Shown: positions 35,276 through 50,884 of the stretch, in pieces
Numbering within the stretch: position 1 is the first letter of the stretch
Layout of the letters: each line of letters opens with the position of its first letter
Assembly: GCA_045660125.1 (NCBI GenBank)
Contig: JAZRDG010000097.1
Location: 1 to 51,325, forward strand
DNA: 51,325 nt
Reading direction: 5' to 3'
Origin: Eubacteriales bacterium
Lineage (GTDB): Bacteria > Bacillota > Clostridia > Oscillospirales > CAG-272
Notes under the pieces: model-generated
What the model was told of the DNA's origin: nothing
Database searches by the model: none
The model's input: the letters and a program-made list of their open reading frames with translations, nothing else
Position numbers and translations under genes: made by a program

Positions 35276-36796
35276 CTATTGGGGATAAATGATAAAGAAC
35301 GGTTGCTCCATATCCGACGTGTGCAGATAGATGCAGTCATGCTTATCCACCTTTCCGTAAACGACGTTGCTCTCCCACTCTGCAAGCGTGCCGGGATAAT
35401 TGTAGATCACTTGATAAGCATGCGAATATTCCTTTTCACCGCCAAAGAACTTTAAGCTTGCGGGCAGGTAGATATGCACGATCGGCTGATCTTCGACCAA
35501 CGCGTCGTTTGCAAAGCAATGGCGTCCGATCTGGATCACGCCCTCGGGAATGCGCAAGGCAACCTCGCCCTGAGCATTCGGCTGCAGGCGACAGTACAGA
35601 AAAGCGTTAGGATCCATGATGCGAATATCCACGTCCGTGGGGAAATCGCCGTCCTCGCGCAGATACAGCTTGAGCGTACCCGTGGCGGTGTCCACCAGAC
35701 ACCCGTCGATCATCTTGAGCGTAGGATTCTCCTCTGCTACCGTGACCGTCTCCAGCGAGGGCAGATTTGCCCACATGGCGTTATTGATCGAGCTGACGGT
35801 TTTGGGAATGGTAATACCCACGGCACAAGACAAAGCCGCGTCACGCAAAATGGTCAGGCACAGCTCGGCACTTTCCCTGCTGCCGCTCTGCTTTGCCAAC
35901 TGCACGACCTCACTCACGCTCTGCTCGTACTTTTCCTCATCCCATTCGCAGTACTTGGTCAGATATCCGTAGATCTTGCTGACTTCGGCACTCGATGCAA
36001 GCAAGTCAAACACGTATACGTCACCCATCTCTGCAATGGGGTAGATGTTCGCAAGCTCCTCGCGACCGATATCGTCAAGGCCTGCAACCGACAGGTTTAA
36101 ATAATACGCTCTGAGCTTCTCCAGCTCAAAATTGCTGATGCCGTTTTGCTTTGCAACTTCACACAGCGCTTGCAAGGTCTGGGCGGTCAGCACGTACGGG
36201 AAAGACGCAACGTGCGATTGCTTGACTCCGGTAAACTGATCAATATCGATTGCCGTGACGATATCCCCTGCGGGAGAGGTCTCGGGGATCTCGATCACAA
36301 AATCCTCGGTAACGCCGGGGGCGGTGGTGATATACTCCAGCGTGCAGGTGCCGTCGCCGCCCGAAACGAAATACAGGCGGTAGGGCTTGCCGTCTTCAAA
36401 CGTGTCCTGCGCGCTAAGACCTGCAAACTGCGACTGCGCCAGCACGTTTACTACGGGCAGATCCTGCATCAGCGTCCAAAGTGGCTGCGGCAGCGTTTGC
36501 TCCAGCTTCCCTGCCATCTTGTCCTGCCAGAGCACGAATCCATCAATTTTCATGAGCTCTTGGGTCAACGCCTCGGAGTCACCCTGAAGCACCGCTCTGC
36601 CCACGGGGTTTGATAACATGCCGGCGGGCACGCAGGCGCAAAGTAAGATTGCCACGCAAGCCGCCACGGCAAGCACGCGCACGCGCATTCTTTTTCGAGC
36701 ATGCTTGCGCGCAAGCTCTTTATCCATTGTAAAATACTGCGCCAAAAGCTGATCGTCCAGCTCTGTCAGTTCTACGAAAAGCTGCTTTCTTTTCAT
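35276..36796 (-). CDS. Membrane-anchored anti-sigma-like sensor with BspA-type LRR-like ectodomain (pair 1)
   Basis: ATGA overlap with its sigma gene. N-terminal module (LTELDDQLLAQYFTMDKELARKHARKRMRVRVLAVAACVAILLCACVP). Ectodomain repeats (IPKTVSSINNAMW...NPTLKMIDGCLVD...GTLKLYL). Paralog of 40195..41727. Confidence 0.75.
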   Translation of the reverse strand: MKRKQLFVELTELDDQLLAQYFTMDKELARKHARKRMRVRVLAVAACVAILLCACVPAGMLSNPVGRAVLQGDSEALTQELMKIDGFVLWQDKMAGKLEQTLPQPLWTLMQDLPVVNVLAQSQFAGLSAQDTFEDGKPYRLYFVSGGDGTCTLEYITTAPGVTEDFVIEIPETSPAGDIVTAIDIDQFTGVKQSHVASFPYVLTAQTLQALCEVAKQNGISNFELEKLRAYYLNLSVAGLDDIGREELANIYPIAEMGDVYVFDLLASSAEVSKIYGYLTKYCEWDEEKYEQSVSEVVQLAKQSGSRESAELCLTILRDAALSCAVGITIPKTVSSINNAMWANLPSLETVTVAEENPTLKMIDGCLVDTATGTLKLYLREDGDFPTDVDIRIMDPNAFLYCRLQPNAQGEVALRIPEGVIQIGRHCFANDALVEDQPIVHIYLPASLKFFGGEKEYSHAYQVIYNYPGTLAEWESNVVYGKVDKHDCIYLHTSDMEQPFFIIYPQ

Positions 36797-37380
36797 ACTG
36801 TGATGCCCTCCTGTTCCAATTTTTCGCGCAGCTCAAGCTTGATCGCGGCAAGCTCTTTTCTGACCAGCGTTTGACTGCAGCCAAGTCTTTCAGCAATCTG
36901 CGCAATGGTCAGGGAAAAGAAAAATCGCGAGATGAAAATATACATTCTGCGCTTGGTGGTAGACTTCAAGTACGTATTGACGATTGCCATCACGGTTGCG
37001 GCTTGCAGCTCTGCTTCGGGGTCGTTCTCGCCCGGCAAAACCTCCTGCACTTCCTCAAAGGGAACGCACGATGCACTCGGCACGCGCTTTTTCCTGTGAT
37101 CGGTTTCGTAGCGATGTAAGGACAGATTGCGTGTGATCTTGACCAAAAACGCCGGAAATACGCGCGGACGCTCGGGCGGAACGGCATTCCACACACGCAA
37201 ATACGTATCCTGCAGGCATTCCTCGGTATCCTGCTCGTTGGATAAAATATTAAACGCGACGGTATGCAAATATGCGCTGTATTTCTTATCGGTCTCGGCA
37301 ATCGCGCGCTCCTCGCGGGCAAAATACAGATCAATGATCTGTTCGTCCGAAAGAAACACATCCGGTTGTTTTCTCGCCAT
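36793..37380 (-). CDS. ECF-like sigma-70 family sigma factor (pair 1)
   Basis: SD GGAGGTG lies 4 nt before the ATG at 37380 (the ORF track starts at 37407). Region 2 DTEECLQDTYLRVWNAVPP, region 4 LTIAQIAERLGCSQTLVRKELAAIKLELR. Confidence 0.85.
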   Translation of the reverse strand: MARKQPDVFLSDEQIIDLYFAREERAIAETDKKYSAYLHTVAFNILSNEQDTEECLQDTYLRVWNAVPPERPRVFPAFLVKITRNLSLHRYETDHRKKRVPSASCVPFEEVQEVLPGENDPEAELQAATVMAIVNTYLKSTTKRRMYIFISRFFFSLTIAQIAERLGCSQTLVRKELAAIKLELREKLEQEGITV

Positions 37381-37417
37381 GCTGCACCTCCATGTTTTTT
37401 GCTTCAATCCCCTTATC

Positions 37418-37450
37418 TATCTATATAGACCGCATTTGCGTCCGAAATCG
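37418..37450 (-). promoter_or_regulatory. Shared promoter-proximal motif GCAAA..TGC(C/G)GTCTATATAG (copy 1 of 4)
   Basis: Minus strand reads CGATTTCGGACGCAAATGCGGTCTATATAGAT and ends 37 nt upstream of the sigma ATG. Confidence 0.55.
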
Positions 37451-37478
37451 CACCGCTTTTTCAGGGTTTTTCAAAATT

Positions 37479-37595: not shown

Positions 37596-39395
37596 TTATT
37601 TGATAGGCTCGGTCAGATAGATCAGCAAGGATGCGGAATCGAACACGGGATTTGCATACCCCGGAAGGTCATTCATCACCTGCACCTGGCAATCCATTGC
37701 CAAGCGACCGTCCTGCGTGATCACAAAGCCGTTAAATTGGCGATAGGCATAGCTGCTCGTTTCCTCCATGCCATCCAGCGTATCAAGCATAGATTGCTTT
37801 AAATACTCAGGAATGCTATCCAGCAAACGCAACGAGCCGGTATAGGCCAGCAGAAAGCCCTCGATGACACGGTTGTCGCTATCGTACAATACATATACGG
37901 CATCACAGGACTCATAGCAGCCATTGATTCTTCTGGTATAACCGTACCAATCTTCCCCTTGATAAGATACATGGACACCGGAATCATACTGATCGAAATC
38001 GCTTACCAGAGTTTTCAAGTATTCCATTTCAGCGGTAAATATATCTTCGTAAATGCCCTGGTCCATAAACCCGCCTTCAAGCCAAAACATGACGCATTCC
38101 CCTGTTTCCTGATCAAAGCGCGCTTGATATTTTCTGCCGTCCGCAGTCTTGCCGGTATAATAATGCGTTGCCTGCAGGACAAGATCCTGCGTGGTGGAAT
38201 AGCTATACGTCAAAGCATACTCCACGTCGTGCAGCGTCAGCGTTCTTTCCTTGGGGGCGTTGGCGTCAATATAATTCTCACCTTCCACGTCGATATCCTT
38301 GACAAACGGATCAAGCTGGGGAGACGGCGTAGCGTCATAGGTCAGATACGCATGGTATTCCGGTTGCTCCAAAAACGCGCCGAACTGCGTATTCTCCCAT
38401 GCGTATTTGGGCTCTTCTATGGGCGGCTGAATGATCTGCTCAATAATGCCGGTAACCTCCAGCGAGCCAAACAGCTCGGATGCCTTGACCTCTTTTTGGC
38501 TGTCAACGTAGTAGCAGATCTCAACAAAGTTCCCATCAACCTCGCCCCACCACGTAACCGTATCGCCCGTGCCCGACGGGTGCGGCTCGCGCTGTTGCGC
38601 AAGCAAAAGCATGCGGTGGTCGTCTGTCAGCACAGGACCGTCCATGCCCATGTCTCCGCCAAGTGCATCCAGCACGGCAGTCAGGCGCGCTGCGGTATCC
38701 TGCTTTGTCCACGAGTACGTGCAGCGTACCCATTCCCCGTTGTCGGCTTCCACCGTCACGTAAAACGCCTCGTAAGGCTCGCCCGTGTCAACGCTGACCC
38801 CCTTGGAGTAGTTCAGCCACGTGATCTCGCCTTGCAAAAGGTGTACAAAAGGCGTCGTGTCCACCAGATTGACAAAATCGATCAGATCTTGACGGCTTTG
38901 CGCACCGCCGCCCATCACGCTTGACAGGTATTGCTGCAGCTCCTGCTCGTCCTGACAAAGTATCATCTCGCGCATTTCTGCAAGCTCGGCTGCACTGCGC
39001 AGATCAATGGATTCGGGCGGCTGGGGCACGTCCGGAGGCTCGGTTGCGTCCTCACCCGAATCGGTCGTGGTGTCGGGTTCTACGGGCGCGGTGCCATCCT
39101 CTGCGTTTGTCGTGTCCTCATAGATCGTCGTATCCTGCTCGCCGCTCGACTGCTCAGGCCAAACGATCTCTCCCGGGTTGATCACGGGCGGTTCTTTTTC
39201 AATACTTGCAATCAGCATGCCCACGGGCACGCACGCACTCATCAAAATTGCAAGGCATGCCGCCACGGCAAGCACGCGTATGACGTTCTTTTTACGCGCA
39301 TGCTTACGCGCCAGACGTATATCCATGCGGTGATAACGGTCTAATATGCCGTCATCGATCTCGCCAACTGCATCAAAAAGCAGTTCCTTATTCAT
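37596..39395 (-). CDS. Membrane-anchored anti-sigma-like sensor (pair 2), acidic linker plus large unique ectodomain
   Basis: ATGA overlap with its sigma gene. N-terminal module MNKELLFDAVGEIDDGILDRYHRMDIRLARKHARKKNVIRVLAVAACLAILMSACVP, then a Thr/Glu/Asp/Pro-rich linker and about 480 aa with no recognised domain. Confidence 0.75.
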   Translation of the reverse strand: MNKELLFDAVGEIDDGILDRYHRMDIRLARKHARKKNVIRVLAVAACLAILMSACVPVGMLIASIEKEPPVINPGEIVWPEQSSGEQDTTIYEDTTNAEDGTAPVEPDTTTDSGEDATEPPDVPQPPESIDLRSAAELAEMREMILCQDEQELQQYLSSVMGGGAQSRQDLIDFVNLVDTTPFVHLLQGEITWLNYSKGVSVDTGEPYEAFYVTVEADNGEWVRCTYSWTKQDTAARLTAVLDALGGDMGMDGPVLTDDHRMLLLAQQREPHPSGTGDTVTWWGEVDGNFVEICYYVDSQKEVKASELFGSLEVTGIIEQIIQPPIEEPKYAWENTQFGAFLEQPEYHAYLTYDATPSPQLDPFVKDIDVEGENYIDANAPKERTLTLHDVEYALTYSYSTTQDLVLQATHYYTGKTADGRKYQARFDQETGECVMFWLEGGFMDQGIYEDIFTAEMEYLKTLVSDFDQYDSGVHVSYQGEDWYGYTRRINGCYESCDAVYVLYDSDNRVIEGFLLAYTGSLRLLDSIPEYLKQSMLDTLDGMEETSSYAYRQFNGFVITQDGRLAMDCQVQVMNDLPGYANPVFDSASLLIYLTEPIK

Positions 39396-39979
39396 ATATC
39401 GATGCCCTCCTTATCCAAACATTTGCGGAGCTCTCGCCGAATCTCGGTAAGCTCCTTATTGACCAAGGTAGTGCTGCATGAAAGTCGCTTTGCGATCTGC
39501 GGAATGGTCAGAGAATAGAAATAACGTGACACAAATACGTACATGCGGCGATCGGATACGCTTTCCAAGTAACGGCTGATCACCTGCGCAATCGCCTTTG
39601 ATTTCAGCTCGCGCGCAAGCTCTTGCTGATCGGACACGCATTCGCCAAGCTCGTCAAGCGAAACGCTGACCTCACAGGGCACGCGCTTCTGCCGCTTTGC
39701 CGCCTTGTAGCGGTTGAGCGAAACGTTGCGCGTGATCTTTGCCAGATACGAATGGAAAAGCTTGGGGCGATCCGGAGGAATGGCGTTCCACGCGCGCAAA
39801 TAGGTGTCCTGCAAGCATTCTTCCACGTCCTGCTCGTTGGCAAGAATGTTGTACGCTACAGTATACAGATATTGGCAGTATTTTTTGTCGGTCTCGACAA
39901 TCGCGCGCTCCTCGCGTGCGAAGTACAGATCGATGATCTGCTCGTCGGACAGATACGCTTCTCGTTGTATTCTTGCCAT
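39392..39979 (-). CDS. ECF-like sigma-70 family sigma factor (pair 2)
   Basis: SD GGAGGTG. Region 2 DVEECLQDTYLRAWNAIPP, region 4 LTIPQIAKRLSCSTTLVNKELTEIRRELR. Confidence 0.85.
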   Translation of the reverse strand: MARIQREAYLSDEQIIDLYFAREERAIVETDKKYCQYLYTVAYNILANEQDVEECLQDTYLRAWNAIPPDRPKLFHSYLAKITRNVSLNRYKAAKRQKRVPCEVSVSLDELGECVSDQQELARELKSKAIAQVISRYLESVSDRRMYVFVSRYFYSLTIPQIAKRLSCSTTLVNKELTEIRRELRKCLDKEGIDI

Positions 39980-40014
39980 GCTGCACCTCCTTTGAGTGGA
40001 TTGTAAGGATCCTT

Positions 40015-40048
40015 CACCTATAAAGACACCGTTTTTTGCAAACCGTAC
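40015..40048 (-). promoter_or_regulatory. Shared promoter-proximal motif (copy 2 of 4, most diverged)
   Basis: Minus strand reads GTACGGTTTGCAAAAAACGGTGTCTTTATAGGTG and ends 35 nt upstream of the sigma ATG. Confidence 0.5.
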
Positions 40049-40075
40049 ACGCCTTTTTCCTGCTTTTTCAAATTT

Positions 40076-40194: not shown

Positions 40195-41727
40195 TTACTT
40201 AGTCGGGAATTGGAATATGACCGTGCTCGTTGCGTCTGTTGTACGCAAATAGATATAGTCACCCCTATCCATATTGCCAAAGGTGATGCCGCTCTCCCAC
40301 TCCTCCATAGTACCGGGGTAGCAGAAGACCAAATAGTGATAATAATATGCGTCCTGCATCTGTCCGCCAAAGACGCTTAAGCTTGCGGGCAGATGGATAT
40401 TGACAACCATCGCCTCCCCAAAGTAAACGTCTTCAAAGCAATTCTTTTTGATTTCGGTAATGCCCTCGGGAAGCTGCAGGGTTACTTCACCTTCCACTTC
40501 TCCCGTGCCGAGCTGCAGATCGCAAAGCGCAAATGCATGCGAATCCAAAACGCGAATATCCGCATTCTCCGGGAATTTGCCGTCCTCGCGCAGATACAGC
40601 TTGAGCGTGCCCGTGTCGGTGTCCACAAGACATCCGTCGATCATCTTGAGCGTAGGATTCTCCTCTGCTACCGTGACCGTCTCCAGCGAGGGCAAACTCC
40701 GCCACACGGCGTTATTGATCGAGCTGACTGTTTTGGGAATGGAAATGCCAACCACCTGTCGCAAAGCCGCGCTGCGCAAAACGGTCAGGCAAAGCTCTGC
40801 CTGTTCCCTGCTATCGCTCTTCTTTGCCAGCTTTACGAGCGCATCAATGCTCTGCGCATACTTCTCCTCATTCCATTCGCAGTACTCGGTCAGGCTTGCG
40901 TAAACCTTGTTCAATTCGGTTGTCGTTGCACCCGCGTCAAAGACGTATATATCGCCCAGAGCCGCAATCGGGTATGCATCGAGCAACTCCTGACGCGCGT
41001 TCTCATCAAGACCTGCAACCGACAATTTCAAATAACGCGCGGCTATACGCGCGTAATCAAAATCGCTGATGCCGTTGGCTTTTGCAGTTTCGCACAGGGA
41101 AACCATATCGGCAGCCGTCAAAACGTAGGGAAAATCTGCAGGAGCCCCCGTCTTGACAAAAGAAGGCTGATGGATATTGATCGCGGTCACAACGTCTCCC
41201 GCAGGAGAGGTTTCGGGAATCTCGATCACAAAATTCTCGGTAATCGCGGGATCGGTGGTAACGTACTCCAGCGTGCAGGTGCCGTCGCCGCCCGAAACAA
41301 AATACAGGCGGTAGGGCTTGCCGTCTTCAAGCGTGTCCTGCGCGCTAAGACCTGCAAACTGCGACTGCGTCAGCACGTTTACTACGGGCAAATCCTGCAT
41401 CAGCGTCCAAAGTGGCTGCGGCAGCGTTTGCTCCAGCTTCTCTGCCATCTTGTCCTGCCAGAGCGCAAATCCATCAATTTTTATGAGCTCTTGGGTCAGC
41501 GCCTCGGAGTCACCCTTAAGCACCGCTCTGCCTGCAGGATGCGCAAGCATGCCAACGGGCACGCAGGCGCAAAGCAAGATCGCCAAGCAAGCCGCCACGG
41601 CAAGCACGCGCACGGCAAGCGCCTTGCGTGTGTGCTTTTTCGCCAGGCGCGTATCAATGGCGTGATAACGCTCTAAAATACGGTCGTCCATCTCGCCGAT
41701 GCCTCTGATAAAGGTTTCTTGTTTCAT
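40195..41727 (-). CDS. Membrane-anchored anti-sigma-like sensor with BspA-type LRR-like ectodomain (pair 3)
   Basis: ATGA overlap with its sigma gene. N-terminal module MKQETFIRGIGEMDDRILERYHAIDTRLAKKHTRKALAVRVLAVAACLAILLCACVP. Mosaic high identity to 35276..36796. Confidence 0.75.
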   Translation of the reverse strand: MKQETFIRGIGEMDDRILERYHAIDTRLAKKHTRKALAVRVLAVAACLAILLCACVPVGMLAHPAGRAVLKGDSEALTQELIKIDGFALWQDKMAEKLEQTLPQPLWTLMQDLPVVNVLTQSQFAGLSAQDTLEDGKPYRLYFVSGGDGTCTLEYVTTDPAITENFVIEIPETSPAGDVVTAINIHQPSFVKTGAPADFPYVLTAADMVSLCETAKANGISDFDYARIAARYLKLSVAGLDENARQELLDAYPIAALGDIYVFDAGATTTELNKVYASLTEYCEWNEEKYAQSIDALVKLAKKSDSREQAELCLTVLRSAALRQVVGISIPKTVSSINNAVWRSLPSLETVTVAEENPTLKMIDGCLVDTDTGTLKLYLREDGKFPENADIRVLDSHAFALCDLQLGTGEVEGEVTLQLPEGITEIKKNCFEDVYFGEAMVVNIHLPASLSVFGGQMQDAYYYHYLVFCYPGTMEEWESGITFGNMDRGDYIYLRTTDATSTVIFQFPTK

Positions 41728-42311
41728 ACGTAGATCTCCTCCTTTTCCAAAAGGATGCGCAGCTCGCGCTTGATCTGTGCCAATTCCTTGCTCACCAAGG
41801 ACTCACTGCAGGAAAGCCGCTTGGCGATCTGCGGAATGGTCAGCGCGAAGAAATAACGGGATACGAACACGTACAGACGGCGGTCGGTCGTGCCGTCCAA
41901 ATACTCCGTGATGATCCTGCCAATGGCTGCCGCCTGCACCTGACGCGCAAGGTCGCTCCCATCTGGCAAAAATTCCTGCACCTCCTCCAGCGGCACGCAC
42001 ATGTTGGAGGGCACGCGCTTTTGTCTGCCGTCGCGCTCGTAGCGATCCAGACTCAGATTGCGCGTGATCTTTGCCAAAAACGCGCGGAACACGCGCGGAC
42101 GCTCGGGTGGAATGGTATTCCAGGTCTTGAGATACGTATCCTGCAAGCATTCCTCTGCATCCTGCTCGTTGGACAAAATGCTATACGCCACGGTGTGCAG
42201 ATATTCACAGTATTTTTTGTCGGTCTCTTCGATGGCGCGTTCTTCCCTTGCAAAGTACAGATCAATGATCTGCTCGTCCGAAAGACACGCCTCGCGTGTT
42301 ATCTTTCCCAT
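41724..42311 (-). CDS. ECF-like sigma-70 family sigma factor (pair 3)
   Basis: SD GGAGAT. Region 2 DAEECLQDTYLKTWNTIPP, region 4 LTIPQIAKRLSCSESLVSKELAQIKRELR. Confidence 0.85.
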   Translation of the reverse strand: MGKITREACLSDEQIIDLYFAREERAIEETDKKYCEYLHTVAYSILSNEQDAEECLQDTYLKTWNTIPPERPRVFRAFLAKITRNLSLDRYERDGRQKRVPSNMCVPLEEVQEFLPDGSDLARQVQAAAIGRIITEYLDGTTDRRLYVFVSRYFFALTIPQIAKRLSCSESLVSKELAQIKRELRILLEKEEIYV

Positions 42312-42345
42312 ATTGCATCTCCTTTTGTGTGTTTCAGGGGCTCTT

Positions 42346-42379
42346 ACCTATATAGACGGCATTTTTGCAAAACCTTGTA
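42346..42379 (-). promoter_or_regulatory. Shared promoter-proximal motif (copy 3 of 4)
   Basis: Minus strand reads TACAAGGTTTTGCAAAAATGCCGTCTATATAGGT and ends 34 nt upstream of the sigma 3 ATG. It matches the plus-strand copy at 42513-42546 at 30 of 34 positions. Confidence 0.6.
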
Positions 42380-42412
42380 AAAAACAATTCCATTTATTTT
42401 ATTATACTGTTT

Positions 42413-42441
42413 ATTATACTATAAATACTGCGCGAATACAA
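42413..42441 (-). promoter_or_regulatory. SigmaA-type promoter upstream of sigma gene 3
   Basis: On the minus strand: TTGTAT, 17-nt spacer, TATAAT. A second TATAAT lies 12 nt downstream (direct repeat TTATTATACT x2 on the plus strand). Confidence 0.5.
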
Positions 42442-42512
42442 GAACAACAAGCGTATATCGATGGCTCACTCCGTTATCTGCGGGAGGCATCCTTCTCTTT
42501 ACAACCTTCTTT

Positions 42513-42546
42513 TACAAGCTTTGGCAAAAATGCCGTCTATATATAT
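42513..42546 (+). promoter_or_regulatory. Shared promoter-proximal motif (copy 4 of 4) in front of the plus-strand surface-protein/ABC operon
   Basis: TACAAGCTTTGGCAAAAATGCCGTCTATATATAT, ending 29 nt upstream of the ATG at 42576. A CGTC-type -10 is typical of ECF promoters. Confidence 0.6.
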
Positions 42547-42575
42547 GGGTGGGAAAATTTTCAAAGGAGACTGAT

Positions 42576-43706
42576 ATGGAAAACGAAAAAAGACGCATTG
42601 CTTTGCCTTGGTGGGTGCCGTACAGCATCCCCGTGGTCATCTTTGCCGCGATCATGATATTTATCATTGCAGATAAGCCGGAATACACGGTCACGTTTTC
42701 TCCGGGCTACGATGGCGGCAGAAGCAAAACCGAGACGGTGGAGAAAAAGGACACTCTTGCCGTGCCCGATGATATCTATCGCCCGGGCTATACGTTTGAC
42801 GGCTGGTGGTATGAGGACGAGAGCGGCTGGCGGCTTTGGGATTTTGAAAATGACAAGGTCTACGAGGATATCACGCTGACTGCGCGTTGGGAGCACGTTA
42901 CGTATACAATGACCTTAGATGCCAACGGCGGCGAGTGCGATATTACGGAATACACCGTGCAGAGTGGAGTGCCATATGAGATGCCTGCTCCTACGCGTAA
43001 AGGGTATACCTTTGCGGGTTGGTATTGCGGTTGTCAGAACATGACCAAAGGCATATATCCGTACATTGATGATGTACCTGTCAAAGCAAGATGGGTCACG
43101 TATCCGCTTGGCATGTCGGTTCACATTGGCAGATTCGAGCAGGACGGCAACCTTGATAACGGACCCGAAGAGATTGAATGGTATGTGGTGGATTACAAGG
43201 ATGGAAAATACTATTTACTCAGCAAATACATGCTGTTTGAAATGCGATATTCGAAAAATTACCCGGATGGAGATGAAAATTATGAAGATACAAATTGGGA
43301 GACCTCGCTCATCCGTGCGTATCTGAACGACGAATTCCTTGACACGGCATTCACAGAGCAGGAGCAGCAGTATATCGTTCCAACTGCTTTGCCGGAAGGC
43401 GTCACCGATCGCGTTTTTCTGTTAAGCAAAGATGACGTTGAGCAAATCGTAGTCGAAGGACTTCTTACTATGGGCATTCCGAGTAATTATTTGATTGCGC
43501 AAGGTGTCGAAACAAGAAATGGGCATTGTGATCTCATGGAGCCCGAAACCGTATACAACACAACCTGGTATTACATGCGAGACAAAGTAGAAGTAGACGG
43601 ATGGGCTTATTGTTACTACAGTTCCATTTCCTTAGTAAGACCGGTTATGTGGATTGATGAGAGTTATTTGATCGGAACAAGCCCCGAGAAAGGAGAGACA
43701 CCATGA
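42576..43706 (+). CDS. TM-anchored surface protein: two InlB-B/Flg_new-like repeats plus a DUF6273-like C-terminal domain (copy 1)
   Basis: SD AAAGGAG 6 nt before the ATG at 42576. TM WWVPYSIPVVIFAAIMIFIIA. Repeats (YRPGYTFDGWWYEDE..., TRKGYTFAGWYCG...). C-terminal domain IEWYVVDYKDGKYYLLSKYML...WETSLIRAYLNDEF. Confidence 0.75.
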   Translation: MENEKRRIALPWWVPYSIPVVIFAAIMIFIIADKPEYTVTFSPGYDGGRSKTETVEKKDTLAVPDDIYRPGYTFDGWWYEDESGWRLWDFENDKVYEDITLTARWEHVTYTMTLDANGGECDITEYTVQSGVPYEMPAPTRKGYTFAGWYCGCQNMTKGIYPYIDDVPVKARWVTYPLGMSVHIGRFEQDGNLDNGPEEIEWYVVDYKDGKYYLLSKYMLFEMRYSKNYPDGDENYEDTNWETSLIRAYLNDEFLDTAFTEQEQQYIVPTALPEGVTDRVFLLSKDDVEQIVVEGLLTMGIPSNYLIAQGVETRNGHCDLMEPETVYNTTWYYMRDKVEVDGWAYCYYSSISLVRPVMWIDESYLIGTSPEKGETP

Positions 43707-44773
43707 AAAAGCTCCCCTGGTGGGTGCCGTACAGCGTCCCCGTGATCATATTTGCCGCGATCATGATATTTATCATTGCAGATAAACCCGAATACACGGT
43801 CACATTCTCTCCGGGTTACGACGGTGGCAGAAGCAAAACCGAGACGGTGGAGAAAAAGGACACAGTTTCTGTGCCCGATGAAATTTACCGCCCAGGCTAC
43901 ATCTTTGCCGGCTGGTGGTACAAGGATGAGGACGGCTGGAGGTTGTGGGATTTTGAGAACGACAAGGTGCTCGAGGACATCACGTTGACTGCAAGGTGGG
44001 AGCACGTTACGTATACAATGACCTTAGATGCCAATGGCGGCGAGTGCGATATGACCGAATATAAAGCTTACCCGAACGAAAAACTCAAGCTGCCCGTACC
44101 CACAAGAGAGGGCTACACTTTTGCGGGATGGTTTATCGGTGAATACGATGCCGACAAAGGTATTTACGTTTGGCCCGGCGATTGCTATGCCAAAGCCAAA
44201 TGGGTGACCTACCCGCTTGGTATGACGGTTACGATCGGTCGCTTTGAGCAGGATAACAATCTTGAAAACGGGCCTGAAGAGATCGAATGGTACGTCATTG
44301 ATTACCAGGACGGGAAATATTTTTTAGTCAGCAAATACCTCTTGACCTACCACAGATATGCCGAGAGTAATTATGACAGGACATGGGAAACTTCCTTGCT
44401 TCGCGCCTATCTGAACGGTGAGTTTTATGATACGGCATTCACCGAACAGGAAAAGCAATTCATCACGCCCACCGTATTGCCCGAGGGCGTGACCGACCGC
44501 GTATTCTCTCTTTCAAAAAAAGACGTGGAGGATGTCGTCATCGATTGGAAAATGGTTATGGGCATCGCGACTGACTACGCTGTTTCGCAGGGTTTGAGGG
44601 TGTATAACACTGCCTTCAACCCCATGCACGAGAACAGGGTGTCCTATGACATCGCATGGTACTCCATACGTGGAGCTTCCGTTCTGTGTGGTGCTTTTGG
44701 CAACACATTCGGCAAAAATGGAGTTCGCCCTGCTATGTGGATCGATGAGAGTTATGTAACCGGTAACGAATGA
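43703..44773 (+). CDS. TM-anchored surface protein, Flg_new-like repeats plus a DUF6273-like domain (copy 2)
   Basis: ATGA overlap with copy 1, SD AAAGGAGAG. Collinear paralog of copy 1; the first ~110 aa are nearly identical. Confidence 0.75.
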   Translation: MKKLPWWVPYSVPVIIFAAIMIFIIADKPEYTVTFSPGYDGGRSKTETVEKKDTVSVPDEIYRPGYIFAGWWYKDEDGWRLWDFENDKVLEDITLTARWEHVTYTMTLDANGGECDMTEYKAYPNEKLKLPVPTREGYTFAGWFIGEYDADKGIYVWPGDCYAKAKWVTYPLGMTVTIGRFEQDNNLENGPEEIEWYVIDYQDGKYFLVSKYLLTYHRYAESNYDRTWETSLLRAYLNGEFYDTAFTEQEKQFITPTVLPEGVTDRVFSLSKKDVEDVVIDWKMVMGIATDYAVSQGLRVYNTAFNPMHENRVSYDIAWYSIRGASVLCGAFGNTFGKNGVRPAMWIDESYVTGNE

Positions 44774-44799
44774 ATTGATTATGAAGGAGAATTGACTAT

Positions 44800-44958
44800 A
44801 TGAAAAAACAAGATCTTTTCAGATGCATTGGTCAGATAGATGACCACATATTGGCGAGGTATTTTGCAATAGATAAGAAGTACTTGCGTCGGAGTAAACG
44901 GCGTGTATTTGGTATTGCACGACACAGAAAACATTGTTGTAAGAGTAACGATAAATAA
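44800..44958 (+). CDS. 52-codon ORF encoding only the N-terminal module of the anti-sigma-like family (mini-protein or gene remnant)
   Basis: SD GAAGGAGA 8 nt upstream. MKKQDLFRCIGQIDDHILARYFAIDKKYLRRSKRRVFGIARHRKHCCKSNDK aligns with MNKELLFDAVGEIDDGILDRYHRMDIRLARKHARKK... No TM follows. It is below the ORF-track length cutoff. Confidence 0.45.
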   Translation: MKKQDLFRCIGQIDDHILARYFAIDKKYLRRSKRRVFGIARHRKHCCKSNDK

Positions 44959-44985
44959 GAAAACCATTAAGAAAGGAATACATAT

Positions 44986-46188
44986 ATGAGCTTTAAGAGA
45001 CTTGCTTGCTTTACCTTAGCTGCATTGCTGTTATGCAGTATTTGTGTGTCGTATGCGGCTTGCAACGACAAAGATAAACACGAGATCAACGAGCTGCACC
45101 AAACCAAGGTAGTCAAAAACGACCTTGCCGAATACGGTAACTTTGTCTGGGCGGAATCGAGCAGAATTTATCGCTTTAACCGAAAGACCGAGACCTTTTA
45201 TACCGCCTGCATCGATCCCGAATGCGACGGCAAATGCCCTGTGGATTGCGTCTTCAGTTACTTTGCGGGCGTGCACGATCAAAAGCTGTATTTTTTAGGC
45301 TGGCAGCAGTTTACGAACATCACTATGCTTGCCTATCAGGACGTTGTGACCGGCGAGACCCACGTGCTCAAGACCATGAGCGACACCGCAGACCCCAATG
45401 CCTACTTGACCTTTATTGACGGCGATTGGTGGTACTACAAATGCATGCTGCTCAAGGAGGGCGGAGACGCCACCAAGCCCACGGATTACGAGCCCTATAT
45501 TTGCAGAATTTCGCTTGACGGCTCCAAGGACGAAACCGTTTTCAAGCTTGCAGATACCGAATTTTTATATATGGCAGCGGACGGCAAGGTGGTGACCGCG
45601 CACACGGATAAGCTGTACGTAACCGACGCGGAGACCAAGCAAAAGGACGAGCTTTTCAATTTTACGCAAAACGGATATAAGTCCGTCATGTCCAATGCGC
45701 AATATTTTGACGGCAAGATGTATTTCACCGCCTTAAGTCCCAACATGGCAACCGTGCAATATACGGGCGGACAGCAGCGCATGTCTTTCCTCGTGCGCAT
45801 TGACCTTGACACCCGACAGGCAGAACGAGTGGTGGAAGGACCCGTGGAAAACTTTACCGTGACCGAGCAAGGTATCTATTACGTGCCTTTCAAGATCCGT
45901 TATCATTACGTACCGGATGATTACGAAAGAAACCCCAATAAGGTGACCTACTGCTTGTTTGAAGAGTCCATCTATTTGTGTAACCACGACGGAAGTAACG
46001 CCAAGGTCGTGTACACCAACGACAAGCTTGACTTTACGTTCTATTTCACGGTCATCGACAACACGCTGTACGGCTGGCTGTCCGATTACAATGAGCAGGA
46101 AAAAAGATTTTCCTCCTCGGGCTATTTCGGATCGGTCAACTTTGACACGGGGCGCATCGTACACGCCGTAAAGCCGGATAAGGAATGA
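44986..46188 (+). CDS. Lipoprotein, DUF5050-like distant paralog g (first gene of module 2)
   Basis: Lipobox LLLCSICVSYAAC|N. SD AAAGGAA. Motif FYTACIDPECDGKCPVDCVF at the position equivalent to VCPDPFCxH in paralogs a-f. Confidence 0.8.
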   Translation: MSFKRLACFTLAALLLCSICVSYAACNDKDKHEINELHQTKVVKNDLAEYGNFVWAESSRIYRFNRKTETFYTACIDPECDGKCPVDCVFSYFAGVHDQKLYFLGWQQFTNITMLAYQDVVTGETHVLKTMSDTADPNAYLTFIDGDWWYYKCMLLKEGGDATKPTDYEPYICRISLDGSKDETVFKLADTEFLYMAADGKVVTAHTDKLYVTDAETKQKDELFNFTQNGYKSVMSNAQYFDGKMYFTALSPNMATVQYTGGQQRMSFLVRIDLDTRQAERVVEGPVENFTVTEQGIYYVPFKIRYHYVPDDYERNPNKVTYCLFEESIYLCNHDGSNAKVVYTNDKLDFTFYFTVIDNTLYGWLSDYNEQEKRFSSSGYFGSVNFDTGRIVHAVKPDKE

Positions 46189-48551
46189 TGCGCCTATATA
46201 AATCCGAGCTGCGAAAGCTATGCAGCTCGCGGACGGTATGCATTGTTTTCATCGTGCTGCTGTGTATCAATTTTCTGCTTACGGCATATCTGTCAAAGCC
46301 CTTGCCCCACGAGGACGCCAAGAGGCAGGCATTCGAGGACTATTTGACCGATCCCGAGAAGACCGCGCAATATTACAAGGAACTGCAAATGCTTGCATCC
46401 TTGAACGAGCGCGAGGAGCAGCCGAATTTTCCGTACTCCTACTACGGCTCGCCCGAGTACGATGATTTTCTGATCCTGCGACTGATGTATAAGCGTGCTG
46501 AGTATCTTGAAAGCGGTTATACCAAGCAGGTCGACAGCATCATTTCGATGAGCGAGCGTAAGCTGGACGATATGTACAGCTTTTACTACGACGACGGCGA
46601 CTATGAGATCAAGGAACAAAAAGCGATCCTTGAGAGATACCGATCGATCAAGCAAAACGTGCAGCTTCCGCGCGAATACGCGCACGGCTACGACACCTAC
46701 ATCCAAAACAATACGGTCTCAGTCTTTGTGCTGCTGTGCGTATTGGTCTTTGCGTCGTACCTGTTTTTGGACGAGCGCGCCTCGGGCTTTGAGAGCATTT
46801 TACGCTGTGCCAAGCACGGGCGCGGCAGGACGTTCGTTGCCAAAACCCTTGCTCTGCTGACTTGTACGCTCTTTTTCGTGGTGGTCTTTTCGCTGACTAC
46901 CTTTGCTGCGGTGGGGTTGATGCAAGGCTACTCGGATATCACCAGCCCCATCCAAGTCTTTGAGGACTTCGCCAAGGTGCCTTACGAGGTGTCGATCCTT
47001 GGCTATATGCTGCTGCAAATGCTTGTGCGCGTGGTGGCGTTTGCGCTGATTGCCGCCTTTGTATCTTGCCTTGCGTGCCTGCGATTGCCCTACGTTGCCT
47101 CGATCGGCGGGGGGATTGCGCTATACGGTGTCAACGTGCTGATCAGTACGCGCACCTACATGGGCACAACGCCTGCGGTGCGCTATCTCAATCCTGCCGC
47201 CATGATCGAAGCCTGCGCATTGCTTGGATTTGACCGATACCTTTCATTGTTCGGCTTGCCCGTTTCTTACGTTGTAACGGCACTGCTGCTCTCGGTCATG
47301 GCAACGGTAGCGCTGTTTGTAACGGGCGGGATTCTGTTCTGCCAAAACGTGCGCGTGCCAAGCCTGCGGAAAAGCTTCAAGATGCCTAAGATTCTTGTTC
47401 CCAATCTTCCCGTGGCAAGAAAAAAGCACGGAAAAGTGCACACTTTTGCTTGGTATGAGCTCAAAAAGAACCGCTTTTTACTGCTTCTGGCTGCAATATG
47501 CGTGCTTTTGGCTATCAAAAGTGCGTACGTGGACAAGACTGTGGGTACGATGGAGAGCTATGACCAAGCCATTTATTACGAGTACGTGACCACCGTGCAG
47601 CCCATGGAAAGCGACGAGCGCACCGCATACATGAGGGCAGAGCGGGAGCGCATTGATACGATTCTGTTTGCCGCAGAATCCAATCGAAACGCATTCTCCA
47701 ATGACCAAATGACGGCAGAGGAATATTTTGCCTATTGCGAGCAGCTGACCGACGCAAGGGCACGCAACGGTGTGTTTGCCCGTGTGGAGAACTACGTAAA
47801 TTATATTGAGCGCAAGAATGCCGAAACGGGCGGTGACGCCAAAATCATTTACAGCATCGGCTACGAGCGGCTTTACAACTTGCCCTCCGACGCATTTGTG
47901 TGCGCTGCGCTGATGCTCTTATGCGTGGGTACGTTTGCGGTAGAATACGCGTCGCAATCCTCAAAGGGCGGCTTTTCGCAGATCTTGCGTGCCACCAAGC
48001 ACGGCAGAAAGCACACCTTTGCTTGCAAGATCATCACCTATGGCGCACTCGGCGCGTGCATCTCGGTCGCCTTTCGTGCTGCAACGCTGTTGATCGTGTC
48101 TCGCAATTACGTGCTGCCCGATTTGGATGCCGCGCTGTATTCTATCCAAGCCTTTTCCGATGTGACGTCGGACGTCACGATCGGGCAATACCTGCTGCTT
48201 GACCTTGGGCTGCAGATCCTGCTTGGCGCGATCTTTGCCGTGGTAGTCTGCACGCTCTCCTGCTTTTGCAAGCGTCCGCTTGCCACAATCGTTGCGAGCG
48301 TATTTGCCATCGGCTTGCCCGAGGTGCTTGCGAGCACCGTGCTGCCGCAGTTCGCGGCGTTCAGCATTCTCTCGCTTTCCTCACCGCTGCGCGTGACCGC
48401 CCTTTCAGCGCAAAAGCAGCTGTCCGGCGGTGATTTCACATATTTTTGGCGTGCTTTGACGCTGTATCTTTTGTTGGGCGCGGCACTCGTGCTGCTTGCA
48501 GGGCGCAAATTCTGCAAATCTTATTACAATGGGGGCTGCCATGAAGCTTGA
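46185..48551 (+). CDS. Fused double-TMD ABC-2-like permease (788 aa), module 2
   Basis: ATGA overlap with lipoprotein g. Same two-half architecture as 27301..29406: a TM plus a long hydrophilic loop, then helices, twice. Confidence 0.8.
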   Translation: MMRLYKSELRKLCSSRTVCIVFIVLLCINFLLTAYLSKPLPHEDAKRQAFEDYLTDPEKTAQYYKELQMLASLNEREEQPNFPYSYYGSPEYDDFLILRLMYKRAEYLESGYTKQVDSIISMSERKLDDMYSFYYDDGDYEIKEQKAILERYRSIKQNVQLPREYAHGYDTYIQNNTVSVFVLLCVLVFASYLFLDERASGFESILRCAKHGRGRTFVAKTLALLTCTLFFVVVFSLTTFAAVGLMQGYSDITSPIQVFEDFAKVPYEVSILGYMLLQMLVRVVAFALIAAFVSCLACLRLPYVASIGGGIALYGVNVLISTRTYMGTTPAVRYLNPAAMIEACALLGFDRYLSLFGLPVSYVVTALLLSVMATVALFVTGGILFCQNVRVPSLRKSFKMPKILVPNLPVARKKHGKVHTFAWYELKKNRFLLLLAAICVLLAIKSAYVDKTVGTMESYDQAIYYEYVTTVQPMESDERTAYMRAERERIDTILFAAESNRNAFSNDQMTAEEYFAYCEQLTDARARNGVFARVENYVNYIERKNAETGGDAKIIYSIGYERLYNLPSDAFVCAALMLLCVGTFAVEYASQSSKGGFSQILRATKHGRKHTFACKIITYGALGACISVAFRAATLLIVSRNYVLPDLDAALYSIQAFSDVTSDVTIGQYLLLDLGLQILLGAIFAVVVCTLSCFCKRPLATIVASVFAIGLPEVLASTVLPQFAAFSILSLSSPLRVTALSAQKQLSGGDFTYFWRALTLYLLLGAALVLLAGRKFCKSYYNGGCHEA

Positions 48552-49458
48552 ACTTAAACATATCAGTAAATCATACGGTGCTGTTCGTGCGCTCTCGGAT
48601 TTTTCCGCAGAGCTGACGCCCGGCATTTACGCGCTGCTGGGGCCCAACGGCTCGGGCAAGACCACGCTGATGCACATTCTGACCGACAACTTAAAAGCGG
48701 ACACAGGAGAGATCTTGTATGCGGATGATAACTGTGAGAAGCAAAACGTAAAGGCTATGGGCGAGCAATTCCGCGAGAAGATCGGTTTTATGCCGCAGTA
48801 CCCGGGCATGTACCCCAATTTCACAGCCAGGCAGTTTTTGCAGTACGTTGCCGCACTCAAGGGTGTTGGCGAGAAAGAGAAAAAGCGCGCCAGAGACGCG
48901 AAAATCGACAGACAAATCACCGAGATTTTGGACGAATTGGAGCTTTCCGACGTGGCAACACGCAAGATCGGCACCTTTTCGGGCGGCATGAAGCAGCGCC
49001 TCGCCCTTGCGCAGGCTGTGCTGGGCGATCCCAAAATCTTGATTCTTGACGAGCCCACCGCAGGGCTTGACCCCAAGCAGCGTATCGCGGTGCGCAACTA
49101 CATCTCGCGCATCTCGCAGGACAAGATCGTCATCATCGCCACGCACGTGGTGTCCGACGTCGAATTTATCGCCAAGGAGATCATCATGCTCCGTAAGGGC
49201 GAGATCGTCAACATGGCAGCTCCGCACGTGCTGCTGCAGGAGCTTGCGGGCAAGGTGTGGGAGATCTGTGCAGAACAAGACCGGATTGTCGAGCTGCAAA
49301 ACGCCTTTGCGGTCACCAATATCGCAACCTCGGAAAAGCACGCGGGTAAGGTAGTGCTGCGCGTGCTGTCCGACATACAGCCGACAGCGGACGCGACTCC
49401 TCTTTCCCCCATGCTGGAAGACTATTATTTGTACACATTCGGCAAAAAAGAGCAATAA
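48541..49458 (+). CDS. ABC transporter ATP-binding protein (ABC-2/DrrA-like), module 2
   Basis: MKLELKHISKSYG..., Walker A GPNGSGKTT, LSGGMKQRLALAQAVL, ILILDEP. The start at 48541 overlaps the permease end by 11 nt. Close paralog of 26386..27300. Confidence 0.9.
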   Translation: MKLELKHISKSYGAVRALSDFSAELTPGIYALLGPNGSGKTTLMHILTDNLKADTGEILYADDNCEKQNVKAMGEQFREKIGFMPQYPGMYPNFTARQFLQYVAALKGVGEKEKKRARDAKIDRQITEILDELELSDVATRKIGTFSGGMKQRLALAQAVLGDPKILILDEPTAGLDPKQRIAVRNYISRISQDKIVIIATHVVSDVEFIAKEIIMLRKGEIVNMAAPHVLLQELAGKVWEICAEQDRIVELQNAFAVTNIATSEKHAGKVVLRVLSDIQPTADATPLSPMLEDYYLYTFGKKEQ

Positions 49459-49466
49459 ATATCAAC

Positions 49467-49502
49467 GCAGGACCGCGGCACTTCGCGGTCCTGCATATTT
49501 TT
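49467..49502. terminator. Bidirectional rho-independent terminator
   Basis: Stem GCAGGACCGCG/CGCGGTCCTGC with a 6-nt loop, then ATATTTTT. Lies between convergent genes. Confidence 0.8.
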
Positions 49503-49507
49503 GCATA

Positions 49508-50884
49508 TTACATCTCCTCAGCCAAGGTTCTGCGCTTTTTCCATTTTCCCGAGAGGAAATAGATCAGGCTGGGGATGGCGTAGCCGTAGGGTGCAAGACC
49601 GTAGCCCAGCACGAAGCCGAAGAATCCCCATCCGAACGCGATGCCGAACAGCCACGAAAGTCCTACGCGCAGCACCACGCCGTCCAAAAGCGCCAGCACC
49701 ATGCACAGCTTGGCGTGCCCAAGTCCTTGGATAAACGCGCCGCTGCCGCGCATGACGGCAAACGCCGGGAACATCCAAAGGATCGCCGCGATAAACTCGC
49801 CCGACATGGCGTGCACGGCGGGGTCGTCCGAGAACATCATAAACATCTGCTTGCCGAAGCACACGTAAGCGAGAATGAAGGCTGCCGTGAGCGCAAAGGA
49901 ATAGATCCACGCCCAGCGCACCACCTGCACGGCGCGCTTTTGCTCGCCCGCGCCGATGTTCTGGCTGATCATGGGCATGGCAGCATACTGAATGCCCTGC
50001 GAGATCTTGTTGATGATATCGTCAATGCGCACGCCTACGCCAAAGGTAGCGGACGCCTCGACGCTGATGATATTGATCTGCGCGTTGACCACCAGCATGG
50101 AAAGATTGATAAAGCCGGATTGGATCGCCATGGGTACGCCCTGCTTGGCGATCATGCCCACGTATTTCAAATTGGGTATAAAGTTCTCTGCAGCAAAATC
50201 GAAGCCGAACGCCTCTCTCTTGCGGTACAGATAAAACAGCGAAAAGACAAACGACGCGCCCTGACCGATGATGGTTGCCCACGCAGCACCTGCCACGCCC
50301 CAGCCAAGCCAGCCGGTGAACAAAAGGTCAAGCACCAGATTGACCGCGGACGCAATGCCGATGAACATAAACGGACGCTTGGCGTCTCCCATGCCGCGCA
50401 GCACGGCGGACACCATGTTGTACCCCGCGGTAAATAACAGACCCAACGCGCAGATGACCAGATAATCCATTGCCATTGCGTAGGACTCGGGCGGGATATG
50501 CATAGCGATCAAAATGGGATTGCGGAAGGTCAGAATCACGCCTGCCAGCACCAAGGAAAGCGCCAGCACGAACCCGAACAGCGTGCCCATAATGCGGCTC
50601 ATTTCCTTTTTCTTGCCCGCACCGAGCGCTTGCGCAACCAGCACCTGCCCCGCGTTGGAAAAGCCGAGACAGACCATGGTAGCAAAGTTGACGATCTGCG
50701 AGGATTGCGACACGGCGCTAAGTCCCGGCGTGCCCACAAACTCGCCCACGATGATCATGTCAATGGTGCTGTACAGCACCTGCATGGCGTTGGACGCCAT
50801 AAAAGGCAGCGCAAAAAGCAGCAGCTGCCGTGAAATATTCCCTTGTGTAAAGTCCTTTCGAAGCGTCTTGGTCGCCAAGGTCAT
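49508..50884 (-). CDS. MATE-family multidrug/toxin efflux transporter
   Basis: 458 aa with 12 hydrophobic helices. N-terminus LLLFALPFMASNAMQVLYSTIDMIIVG is typical of MATE (NorM/DinF-like) proteins. Confidence 0.85.
   Translation of the reverse strand: MTLATKTLRKDFTQGNISRQLLLFALPFMASNAMQVLYSTIDMIIVGEFVGTPGLSAVSQSSQIVNFATMVCLGFSNAGQVLVAQALGAGKKKEMSRIMGTLFGFVLALSLVLAGVILTFRNPILIAMHIPPESYAMAMDYLVICALGLLFTAGYNMVSAVLRGMGDAKRPFMFIGIASAVNLVLDLLFTGWLGWGVAGAAWATIIGQGASFVFSLFYLYRKREAFGFDFAAENFIPNLKYVGMIAKQGVPMAIQSGFINLSMLVVNAQINIISVEASATFGVGVRIDDIINKISQGIQYAAMPMISQNIGAGEQKRAVQVVRWAWIYSFALTAAFILAYVCFGKQMFMMFSDDPAVHAMSGEFIAAILWMFPAFAVMRGSGAFIQGLGHAKLCMVLALLDGVVLRVGLSWLFGIAFGWGFFGFVLGYGLAPYGYAIPSLIYFLSGKWKKRRTLAEEM

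Follow-up and report, generated by a model that had tools for sequence, protein, structure and literature searches.

Between the gene of an extracytoplasmic function (ECF) sigma factor, sigma 3, and a divergent operon for surface proteins and an ATP-binding cassette (ABC) transporter, a 34-nucleotide (nt) motif occurs twice, as an inverted pair, in a 51,325-nt contig of an Eubacteriales bacterium (JAZRDG010000097.1; this whole stretch is called the window below). Are these two copies a pair of promoters, or the arms of a DNA segment that can be inverted? A sequence-only reading of the window had inferred that sigma 3 autoregulates and directly drives the operon from the two copies, and had offered an invertible promoter switch as the alternative. 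Our analysis supports the first proposal. The locus is most likely an ordinary autoregulated ECF sigma module with the same promoter on a divergent target operon, and the inverted pair would very probably be two outward-facing promoters read by sigma 3, one on its own gene and one on the operon. Its appearance as an inverted repeat would arise because two copies of one asymmetric promoter transcribe divergently. The features on which this argument is built are the following.

40195-41727, minus strand: putative membrane anti-sigma factor 3, 510 amino acids, whose start overlaps the sigma 3 stop codon (41727/41724)
41724-42311, minus strand: ECF sigma factor 3, 195 amino acids (Pfam Sigma70_r2 and Sigma70_r4_2; TIGR02937)
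42344-42383, minus strand: P_sig3, sigma-side ECF-type promoter, from the repeat search and from conservation at the same distance to the ATG in orthologues; TTTT-TACA at 42383-42376, 18-nt T-tract/A-tract spacer at 42375-42358, GTCTAT at 42357-42352, CGTC at 42358-42355, then ATAGGTAA
42413-42441, minus strand: sigma-A-like promoter of the inner segment, facing the sigma gene; TTGTAT at 42441-42436, 17 nt, TATAAT at 42418-42413
42509-42548, plus strand: P_op, operon-side ECF-type promoter, a copy kept 5' of orthologous Flg_new/DUF6273 genes; CTTT-TACA at 42509-42516, 18-nt spacer at 42517-42534, GTCTAT at 42535-42540, CGTC at 42534-42537, then ATATATGG
42576-49458, plus strand: target operon, six reading frames, overlapping or closely spaced, annotated from Pfam/NCBIfam matches

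The minus-strand sequence from 42379 to 42346 reads TACAAGGTTTTGCAAAAATGCCGTCTATATAGGT and the plus-strand sequence at 42513-42546 reads TACAAGCTTTGGCAAAAATGCCGTCTATATATAT, and in this frame we recovered the identity at 30 of 34 positions that had been described. A repeat search put the arms 3-4 nt further inward, at 42349-42382 and 42510-42543 (34 nt each), where 32 of 34 positions match (94% complementary) and 127 nt separate them. The 20-mer GCAAAAATGCCGTCTATATA, common to both arms, had exactly two occurrences in the 51 kb, one per strand, with up to three mismatches tolerated, and none in 100 dinucleotide-preserving shuffles of the window. The exact sequence GTCTATATA was found three times, each time 5' of a sigma gene or of the 42576-49458 operon, and a third sigma gene is preceded by a version with one mismatch; within the window, the motif is confined to the 5' ends of transcription units. 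A search of the intergenic region against Rfam returned no family, and the matches far below threshold (MIR4208, 31.9 bits vs 140 required) are due to the hairpin-like repeat.

The motif is bipartite, TTTACA-N18-GTCTATA, with the core CGTC-TATA. The CGTC-type -10 element that had been announced upstream of both the sigma gene and the operon was found there, with a fixed spacing that is conserved in orthologues, and the distances to the start codons also hold: the minus-strand copy ends 34 nt from ATG 42311 and the plus-strand copy 29 nt from ATG 42576. TACAAG and CGTC are 15 nt apart, equivalent to 18 nt between TACA and GTC; a search pattern in which 16 nt separated TACAAG from CGTC missed the motif. 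Since CGTC occupies -13 to -10 in the promoter of the clostridial ECF sigma factor Tt-RpoE1 (PMC3397946), transcription is predicted to start at about 42345-42348 from P_sig3 and at about 42547 from P_op, and the predicted start would leave a P_op leader of about 29 nt ahead of ATG 42576.

A short palindrome lies directly 3' of the -10 element in the sigma-side leaders (about 42330-42345, minus strand, in the window), family-wide and even in homologues of 37-45% identity. Its centre co-varies, as illustrated by GAAGGGCCCTTC, GAAGCGCTTC, GAAAGGCCTTTC and, in the metagenome contig L081 (relatives' loci and contigs are given by L numbers), AGGGGCCCCT; the operon side of the window (42549-42560, plus strand) has GAAAATTTTC. 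This palindrome may form a 5'-terminal stem or serve as a site for protein binding.

The segment between the arms does contain the TATAAT boxes that had been noticed in it, but all of them are on the minus strand, facing the sigma gene, and none points toward the operon. The promoter TTGTAT-N17-TATAAT was read from the sequence, promoter prediction giving an overlapping TTTATA-N18-TAAAAT, and a second, duplicated TATAAT is present at 42406-42401 (minus strand). At the same place, orthologues carry TTGTAA or TTGTGT-N17-TATAAT in invariant orientation, and this inner promoter probably supplies basal expression of sigma and anti-sigma. No sigma-A-like promoter facing the operon was detected in promoter and terminator scans of the region. 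The inner segment is about 60 nt longer in the window than in all aligned orthologues because of an insertion (42444-42505) between the operon-side motif and the sigma-A -35; the inner segment also holds a 12-nt tandem duplication of AGTATAATAAA(C/A).

Sigma 3 has regions 2 and 4 only, with matches to Sigma70_r2 (3e-12), Sigma70_r4_2 and Sigma70_ECF and a TIGR02937 score of 63.7 bits (cut-off 42.9). The product of the gene that follows has a cytoplasmic N-terminus of about 35 amino acids, one transmembrane helix and a large extracytoplasmic domain; the N-terminus is common to the other anti-sigmas, and the gene is syntenic in all relatives. It had no Pfam or NCBIfam match (neither zf-HC2 nor another anti-sigma Pfam, none at E < 0.01), and we regard it as a putative non-zinc anti-sigma that is predicted to bind sigma 3.

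In the circuit that we propose, the inner sigma-A-type promoter, facing the sigma gene only, would supply basal amounts of sigma and anti-sigma. Once the membrane anti-sigma frees sigma 3, both ECF-type promoters would fire: P_sig3 (minus strand) would drive the sigma 3 and anti-sigma 3 genes, a positive autoregulation, and P_op (plus strand) would drive the surface proteins and ABC transporter of 42576-49458. The operon would be strictly sigma-3 dependent because it has no sigma-A-type promoter of its own. Recognition of the motif by sigma 3 and induction through the anti-sigma are both inferred.

How the motif behaves in relatives bears directly on this proposal, and its absence from orthologous loci had been named as a check. 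The result was in favour of the autoregulation proposal, as the motif is kept at orthologous loci and follows transcription units. An exact-protein look-up of sigma 3 gave no record, and orthologues of 84% and 77% identity were compared in its place. We assembled 80 sigma-homologue loci in GTDB species representatives and searched upstream of the sigma homologues with the fixed-spacing pattern N8-N4-N18-GTCT.TA. Of the 30 listed homologues that are at least 54% identical, 29 have TACA-N18-GTCT(A/T)TA upstream, always with 18 nt of spacing and 37-69 nt from the matched start. Related motifs persist down to about 37% identity, distant homologues carrying TGTGAC...GT(N)TATA variants. A strict 23-base motif pattern hit 6 genome loci and the looser TTTACAAG-N14-CCGTCTATA hit 23; about 10 of these 23 were discarded as chance matches in unrelated coding regions (Flavobacteriia, Vibrio, Bacillus and others), lacking the T/A-tract spacer.

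A footprint alignment of six orthologous divergent intergenic regions left only the two motifs, the sigma-A -10 and the ribosome-binding sites (RBSs) conserved, and the gap between the paired motifs ranges from 50 to 125 nt among orthologous divergent regions. We observed the divergent inverted pair in L003, L005, L008 and L013/L014 and in 16 independent metagenome assemblies from two orthologous lineages (P0011, seven; P0030, nine), and only where the Flg_new/DUF6273 operon lies divergently. The P_op copy is kept 5' of orthologous Flg_new/DUF6273 genes in L003, L005, L008, L082 and L091, and, unlinked, in L114.

Other arrangements were also found. Beside a co-directional MatE gene, a single copy is present (L002, L006, L015, L018, L028). 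L106, which belongs to JAZOLE01, a species-level relative, matches window positions 42111-42381 with 97.8% identity. Its homology breaks off at 42381, where the motif has its inner edge, and is picked up again at MatE (49500-50904); L106 has a single motif copy, and 7 kb of operon are missing from it together with the spacer and the other copy. In L105 and L101, both motif copies lie on one strand at a distance of 1.3 kb, the first 5' of a secreted-protein gene without family match and the second 5' of the sigma gene. In the metagenome-assembled genome (MAG) JAZNBB01 (L002), the permease, the ATPase and a homologue of the 400-amino-acid open reading frame (ORF) are convergent, downstream of the anti-sigma. 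On contig L114, an S3-type motif, TTTTACAAGTTTTTTTCAAAACACCGTCTATATA, ends 45 nt upstream of the ATG of a gene homologous to the first gene of the operon, 72-79% identical to it over the first 91-97 residues, with an NAGPA-domain gene as neighbour; the L002 and L114 contigs are likely linked in one genome, MAG JAZNBB01. Since single, inverted, direct and unlinked arrangements all keep the association, the pattern indicates that the motif goes with the 5' ends of the sigma gene and its targets, whatever their mutual orientation.

Elements of another kind, G+C-rich palindromes resembling repetitive extragenic palindromic (REP) sequences or miniature inverted-repeat transposable elements (MITEs), recur in the intergenic DNA by the relatives' sigma genes (L106 at 280-400; L006, L021, L023, L026, L029), for example CCGTAGGGGCGG...CCGCCCCTACGG and GGACCGTCGGGGACGCCGGTCCCTAC. 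One of them takes the place of the AT-rich spacer in L106.

Which sigma factor reads the motif? The motif varies mainly in its -35 block and at the base that precedes GTC, and this variation follows, clade by clade, the region 4.2 helix of the adjacent sigma. The -35 block and the pre-GTC base co-vary with region 4.2 (CSxSLV-S/N/R/K-KEL) and with the SL(D/N/H)R motif of region 2, in the following combinations.

Region 4.2 CS(Q/E)SLVSKEL: -35 TTTACAAGG, -10 CCGTC
Region 4.2 CSTS(L/T)VNKEL: -35 TTACACAC, -10 (T/G)GTC
Region 4.2 CS(T/V)xxVN(K/R)EL: -35 (T/G)(A/G)CACGG, -10 GTCTTT
Region 4.2 CSQTLVRKEL: -35 GTGCG(A/T)TT, -10 not scored
Region 4.2 CSxSLVKKEL: -35 GTGACCGAT, -10 not scored

The operon copy is of the sigma-3 type (TACAAG...CCGTC), and neither of the sigma-1 type (GTGCGAT...GCGGTC) nor of the sigma-2 type (GTGTACGG...GGTGTCTTT). 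Judged from these alignments, the clade-wise co-variation fits what a cognate relation between sigma and promoter predicts. The -10 region, CGTCTATA, matches that of the Tt-RpoE1 promoter, which was mapped experimentally as tGTTAC-N16-CGTC followed by a TATA box, with a start 39 nt upstream of the start codon (PMC3397946). ECF sigma factors usually autoregulate, and their promoters are routinely found as conserved motifs upstream of their own genes (PMC3817407).

Several observations weigh against the proposed circuit. The -35 block, TTTACA, is without the classical AAC core, and with its TTAC aligned to the GTTAC of Tt-RpoE1, CGTC lies about 2 nt further away than the N16 of that promoter. 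Conservation extends over the entire spacer, beyond what most ECF promoters show, which could reflect an extra binding factor or a DNA-bending requirement. The co-variation of protein and DNA follows clades, and hence is confounded by phylogeny. Cross-talk from sigma 1 or sigma 2, two paralogues encoded in the window and each 65-67% identical to sigma 3, is possible. Finally, a 212-nt gap with a mini-ORF interrupts the operon, and co-transcription through to the ATPase is inferred.

Comparison with characterised systems places the locus among ECF modules. Like the sigma genes here, Tt-RpoE1 (Thermoanaerobacter/Caldanaerobacter tengcongensis; PMC3397946) is a clostridial ECF sigma with an anti-sigma gene (a putative one here) downstream, and its own gene has a promoter with a CGTC-TATA -10, a T-rich xTTAC-type -35 and a leader of about 30-40 nt. 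In contrast, the -35 here is TTTTACA(A/C), with TTAC about 2 nt further from CGTC, and the spacer itself, a T-tract and an A-tract, is conserved; and the putative anti-sigma is unrelated and without Pfam match, that of the Tt system being TolB-like.

The SigW, SigX and SigM modules of Bacillus subtilis also combine a region 2 + 4 sigma with a co-transcribed membrane anti-sigma (a putative one here), and place the same bipartite promoter on the sigma and target genes, the targets serving envelope and transport functions. The modules described here differ from them in belonging to an uncharacterised clade of uncultured gut Clostridia/Oscillospiraceae, in the short non-zinc N-terminus of the anti-sigma, in the three tandem paralogous modules with differing -35 blocks, and in targets made of Flg_new/DUF6273 proteins and an ABC-2-type transporter. 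The Sigma-I/RsgI system of Clostridium thermocellum has several paralogous pairs of sigma and membrane anti-sigma per genome, with variable extracellular sensor domains, and these pairs autoregulate and drive extracellular-protein genes from paralogue-specific promoters. It works similarly to the modules of the window. Membership of that family was ruled out: the sigmas are recognised by ECF models, neither RsgI_N nor another Pfam family was matched by the anti-sigmas, and the promoter consensus differs. That an autoregulated sigma and its regulon carry promoters of one consensus is a principle reportedly used by Staron in 2009. Rhodius used it as well in 2013 (PMC3817407).

Among the alternatives, the one that survives best, although we consider it unlikely, is that the motif serves as an operator for some non-sigma DNA-binding regulator, such as an activator or repressor encoded elsewhere, that co-regulates the sigma genes and the target operons. 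Conservation of the entire 30-nt stretch, T-tract/A-tract spacer included, exceeds the minimal need of a -35 and a -10 and would suit such an operator, as would the palindrome that follows the -10 in many sigma-side leaders. However, the motif is bipartite, neither its 18-nt spacing nor its distance to the ATG varies, it is asymmetric and always points at the downstream gene, and its -10 matches a biochemically defined ECF promoter (PMC3397946). The variation in the -35 block and the pre-GTC base tracks the DNA-reading helices of the adjacent sigma, and no regulator gene besides sigma and anti-sigma travels with the motif in relatives.

It is very unlikely that the promoter copies double as recombination substrates, by rare inversion or by operon swapping. 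In a first version, a rare inversion between the arms could possibly move the only sigma-A-type promoter away from the sigma gene and onto the operon; an inducible circuit would then give way to constitutive surface-protein expression, with the sigma silenced. In a second version, the 30-nt promoter may be a portable junction for the swapping, loss and gain of target operons between paralogous sigma modules, which is hinted at because the L106 homology ends at the motif edge and the operon's position differs among close relatives.

A dedicated inverton, with the arms as invertase sites, has a slighter chance still. Flipping 42383-42509 would turn the inner sigma-A-type promoter, which now faces the sigma gene, toward the operon, and the geometry fits, with 34-nt inverted repeats around a 127-nt AT-rich segment with a TATAAT promoter. 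Known invertons such as the flagellar switch of Clostridioides difficile and the capsule promoters of Bacteroides likewise lie between a gene for a regulator and genes for surface proteins, and have a promoter segment of about 130 bp bracketed by short inverted repeats. The repeats here differ in being outward-facing promoters that are single, direct or unlinked in relatives, always at a fixed distance from the start codon, and their arms are asymmetric, promoter-like and conserved far beyond the needs of a crossover site.

The orientation of the inner segment was surveyed in 23 spanning sequences, namely the window, L081, L003, L005, L008, L013, L014, seven P0011-lineage and nine P0030-lineage assemblies. 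In all 23 the inner TATAAT faces the sigma gene; the survey used assembled sequences, not raw reads, and a low-frequency inversion would escape it. Several metagenome contigs end in or at an arm (L081 at window position 42513; also L084, L089 and L090), as inversion could produce, but de Bruijn assembly can be expected to break contigs at short inverted or paralogous repeats. When metagenomes were scanned with a 28-mer from the interior, L081 was the one contig recovered; it stops where the right arm begins on its inner side, and its other end falls in the sigma region common to the paralogues; its left junction is oriented as in the window, and the right junction lies outside the contig. We found no recombinase domain in any window ORF of at least 150 amino acids, in agreement with what had been stated earlier. 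This absence is not decisive, since a distant invertase is possible: invertases can be encoded far from their switches, as is the case for RecV in C. difficile (PMC7446863). With no flipped copy in 23, with single, direct and unlinked copies in relatives and with no recombinase in the window, the invertible switch proposed as an alternative was not supported.

The slimmest chance goes to the operon-side copy being without function, left behind when the sigma promoter region was recently duplicated or underwent gene conversion, with the operon transcribed from elsewhere. The 32/34 identity of the two copies would agree with a recent origin, and the locus is rearrangement-prone, the operon being present or absent and differently placed among close relatives. 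Yet the copy is kept in at least five orthologous lineages whose sigmas are 72-84% identical to sigma 3 (lowest L008, 72%), the non-coding DNA around it having diverged or changed length; it is retained with the operon elsewhere in the genome (L114), and no sigma-A-type promoter faces the operon. Finally, an operator for a dimeric transcription factor was ruled out by arms that are asymmetric and 127 nt apart, and a transposon or MITE terminal repeat by the lack of a transposase and the fixed start-codon distances of the copies.

The two-promoter reading can be set beside the other sigma modules of the window, which are listed here with their promoters.

39392-39979 and 37596-39395, minus strand: sigma 2 and anti-sigma 2
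40014-40053, minus strand: sigma 2 promoter, single copy, GTGTA-CGGTTTGCAAAAAACGGT-GTCTTTATAGGTGAAGG; GTC 48 nt from the ATG; orthologues L007, L016, L017
36793-37380 and 35276-36796, minus strand: sigma 1 and anti-sigma 1
37417-37456, minus strand: sigma 1 promoter, single copy, GTGCG-ATTTCGGACGCAAATGCG-GTCTATATAGAT; GTC 50 nt from ATG 37380; orthologue L019
19612-20166 and 18338-19615, minus strand: sigma 4 (38% identical to sigma 3) and the downstream membrane protein

The sequence upstream of sigma 2 reads ...GTGTACGGTTTGCAAAAAACGGTGTCTTTATAGG and that upstream of sigma 1 reads ...GTGCGATTTCGGACGCAAATGCGGTCTATATAGAT; at both, a sigma-A-like TTGTCA-N17-TAAAAT precedes the motif. The layout shared at the sigma genes is a sigma-A promoter, T(T/G)(T/G)AC(A), an 18-nt T/A-tract spacer, GTCT(A/T)TA and an RBS. 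At all three paralogous genes (sigma 1-3), and at about 30 homologues elsewhere, the distance from the motif to the ATG is 46-50 nt. Sigma 4 has the motif in a related form, TGTGATG...GTTATAGTTGTTGAAGCGCTT with the variant -10 GTTATAG, behind a sigma-A-like promoter (region 18338-20330, minus strand). The longest ORF of sigma 1 (36793-37407, minus strand) begins at TTG 37407. Its true start is likely ATG 37380, as judged from the GGAGG of the RBS, from the alignment with the paralogues and from the distance to the promoter; the protein then has 195 amino acids, the length of sigma 2 and sigma 3.

Paralogous and orthologous anti-sigmas carry swapped extracytoplasmic domains (35276-36796, 37596-39395 and 40195-41727 in the window; L082, L091, L101): anti-sigma 1 and anti-sigma 3 have a near-identical outer domain, and that of anti-sigma 2 is unrelated. 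A BspA-type leucine-rich repeat match (LRR_5), weak and sub-threshold, was scored in anti-sigma 1 only, and the relatives' anti-sigmas gave weak to faint RHS-repeat matches. These swaps, seen at the level of protein sequence, suggest a modular exchange of sensors.

A paralogous gene set lies co-directionally downstream of sigma 1/anti-sigma 1 (24002-36796, minus strand). It includes further unannotated ORFs and two ORFs whose DUF5050-like matches stay below threshold, in addition to the following.

29403-30533, minus strand: unannotated ORF, 376 amino acids
27301-29406, minus strand: unannotated ORF, 701 amino acids
26386-27300, minus strand: ABC ATPase

The motif search of the window found no separate copy 5' of this set, which may be read through from P_sig1.

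The target operon of sigma 3 and its 3' boundary are composed as follows.

42576-43706 and 43703-44773, plus strand: two proteins with Flg_new (Listeria-Bacteroides repeat) and DUF6273
44800-44958, plus strand: mini-ORF, 52 amino acids, with a good RBS
44986-46188, plus strand: unannotated ORF, 400 amino acids, without family match
46185-48551, plus strand: putative ABC-2-type permease, 788 amino acids, weak Pfam match only
to 49458, plus strand: ABC ATPase
49465-49496, both strands: bidirectional intrinsic terminator with a 12-13 bp G+C-rich stem, closing the operon and the convergent MatE gene

Of the content proposed earlier, the repeat proteins (as Flg_new/DUF6273), the mini-ORF and the ATPase were recovered and the permease stands on its weak Pfam match; the protein called lipoprotein g could not be confirmed as a lipoprotein. 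The 20-mer and motif searches of the window found no further copy inside the operon. The mini-ORF product is about 40% identical to the cytoplasmic N-terminal 35 or so residues of the three anti-sigmas (MKxxxLFxxIGEIDDxILxRYxxxD...), without the anti-sigma transmembrane helix. It is missing from the 90-95% identical operon of L107, where the flanking genes are only 36 nt apart. The mini-ORF could encode a soluble mini-anti-sigma giving negative feedback, or be a recombination remnant.

Further downstream, a tRNA-Gln (51010-51084, plus strand) precedes two Gut-1 RNA matches, one on each strand and both above the Rfam gathering score.

51118-51192, plus strand: Gut-1 RNA, 66.9 bits
51212-51302, minus strand: Gut-1 RNA, 55.5 bits

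Divergent copies of an alternative-sigma promoter mimic inverton geometry, even to a TATAAT promoter between the repeats, which calls for caution with inverton predictors that work without reads. The clade-wise pairings of region 4.2 and -35 block are candidate orthogonal sigma/promoter pairs for Gram-positive anaerobes. Overall, these results provide a testable regulatory map, proposing a promoter for each sigma and the genes of a minimal regulon, for an uncharacterised and highly expanded family of ECF sigmas, large membrane anti-sigmas and Flg_new/DUF6273 surface proteins with ABC transporters, in a paralogue-rich clade (Clostridia and Oscillospiraceae) of uncultured Clostridia from the ruminant and animal gut.

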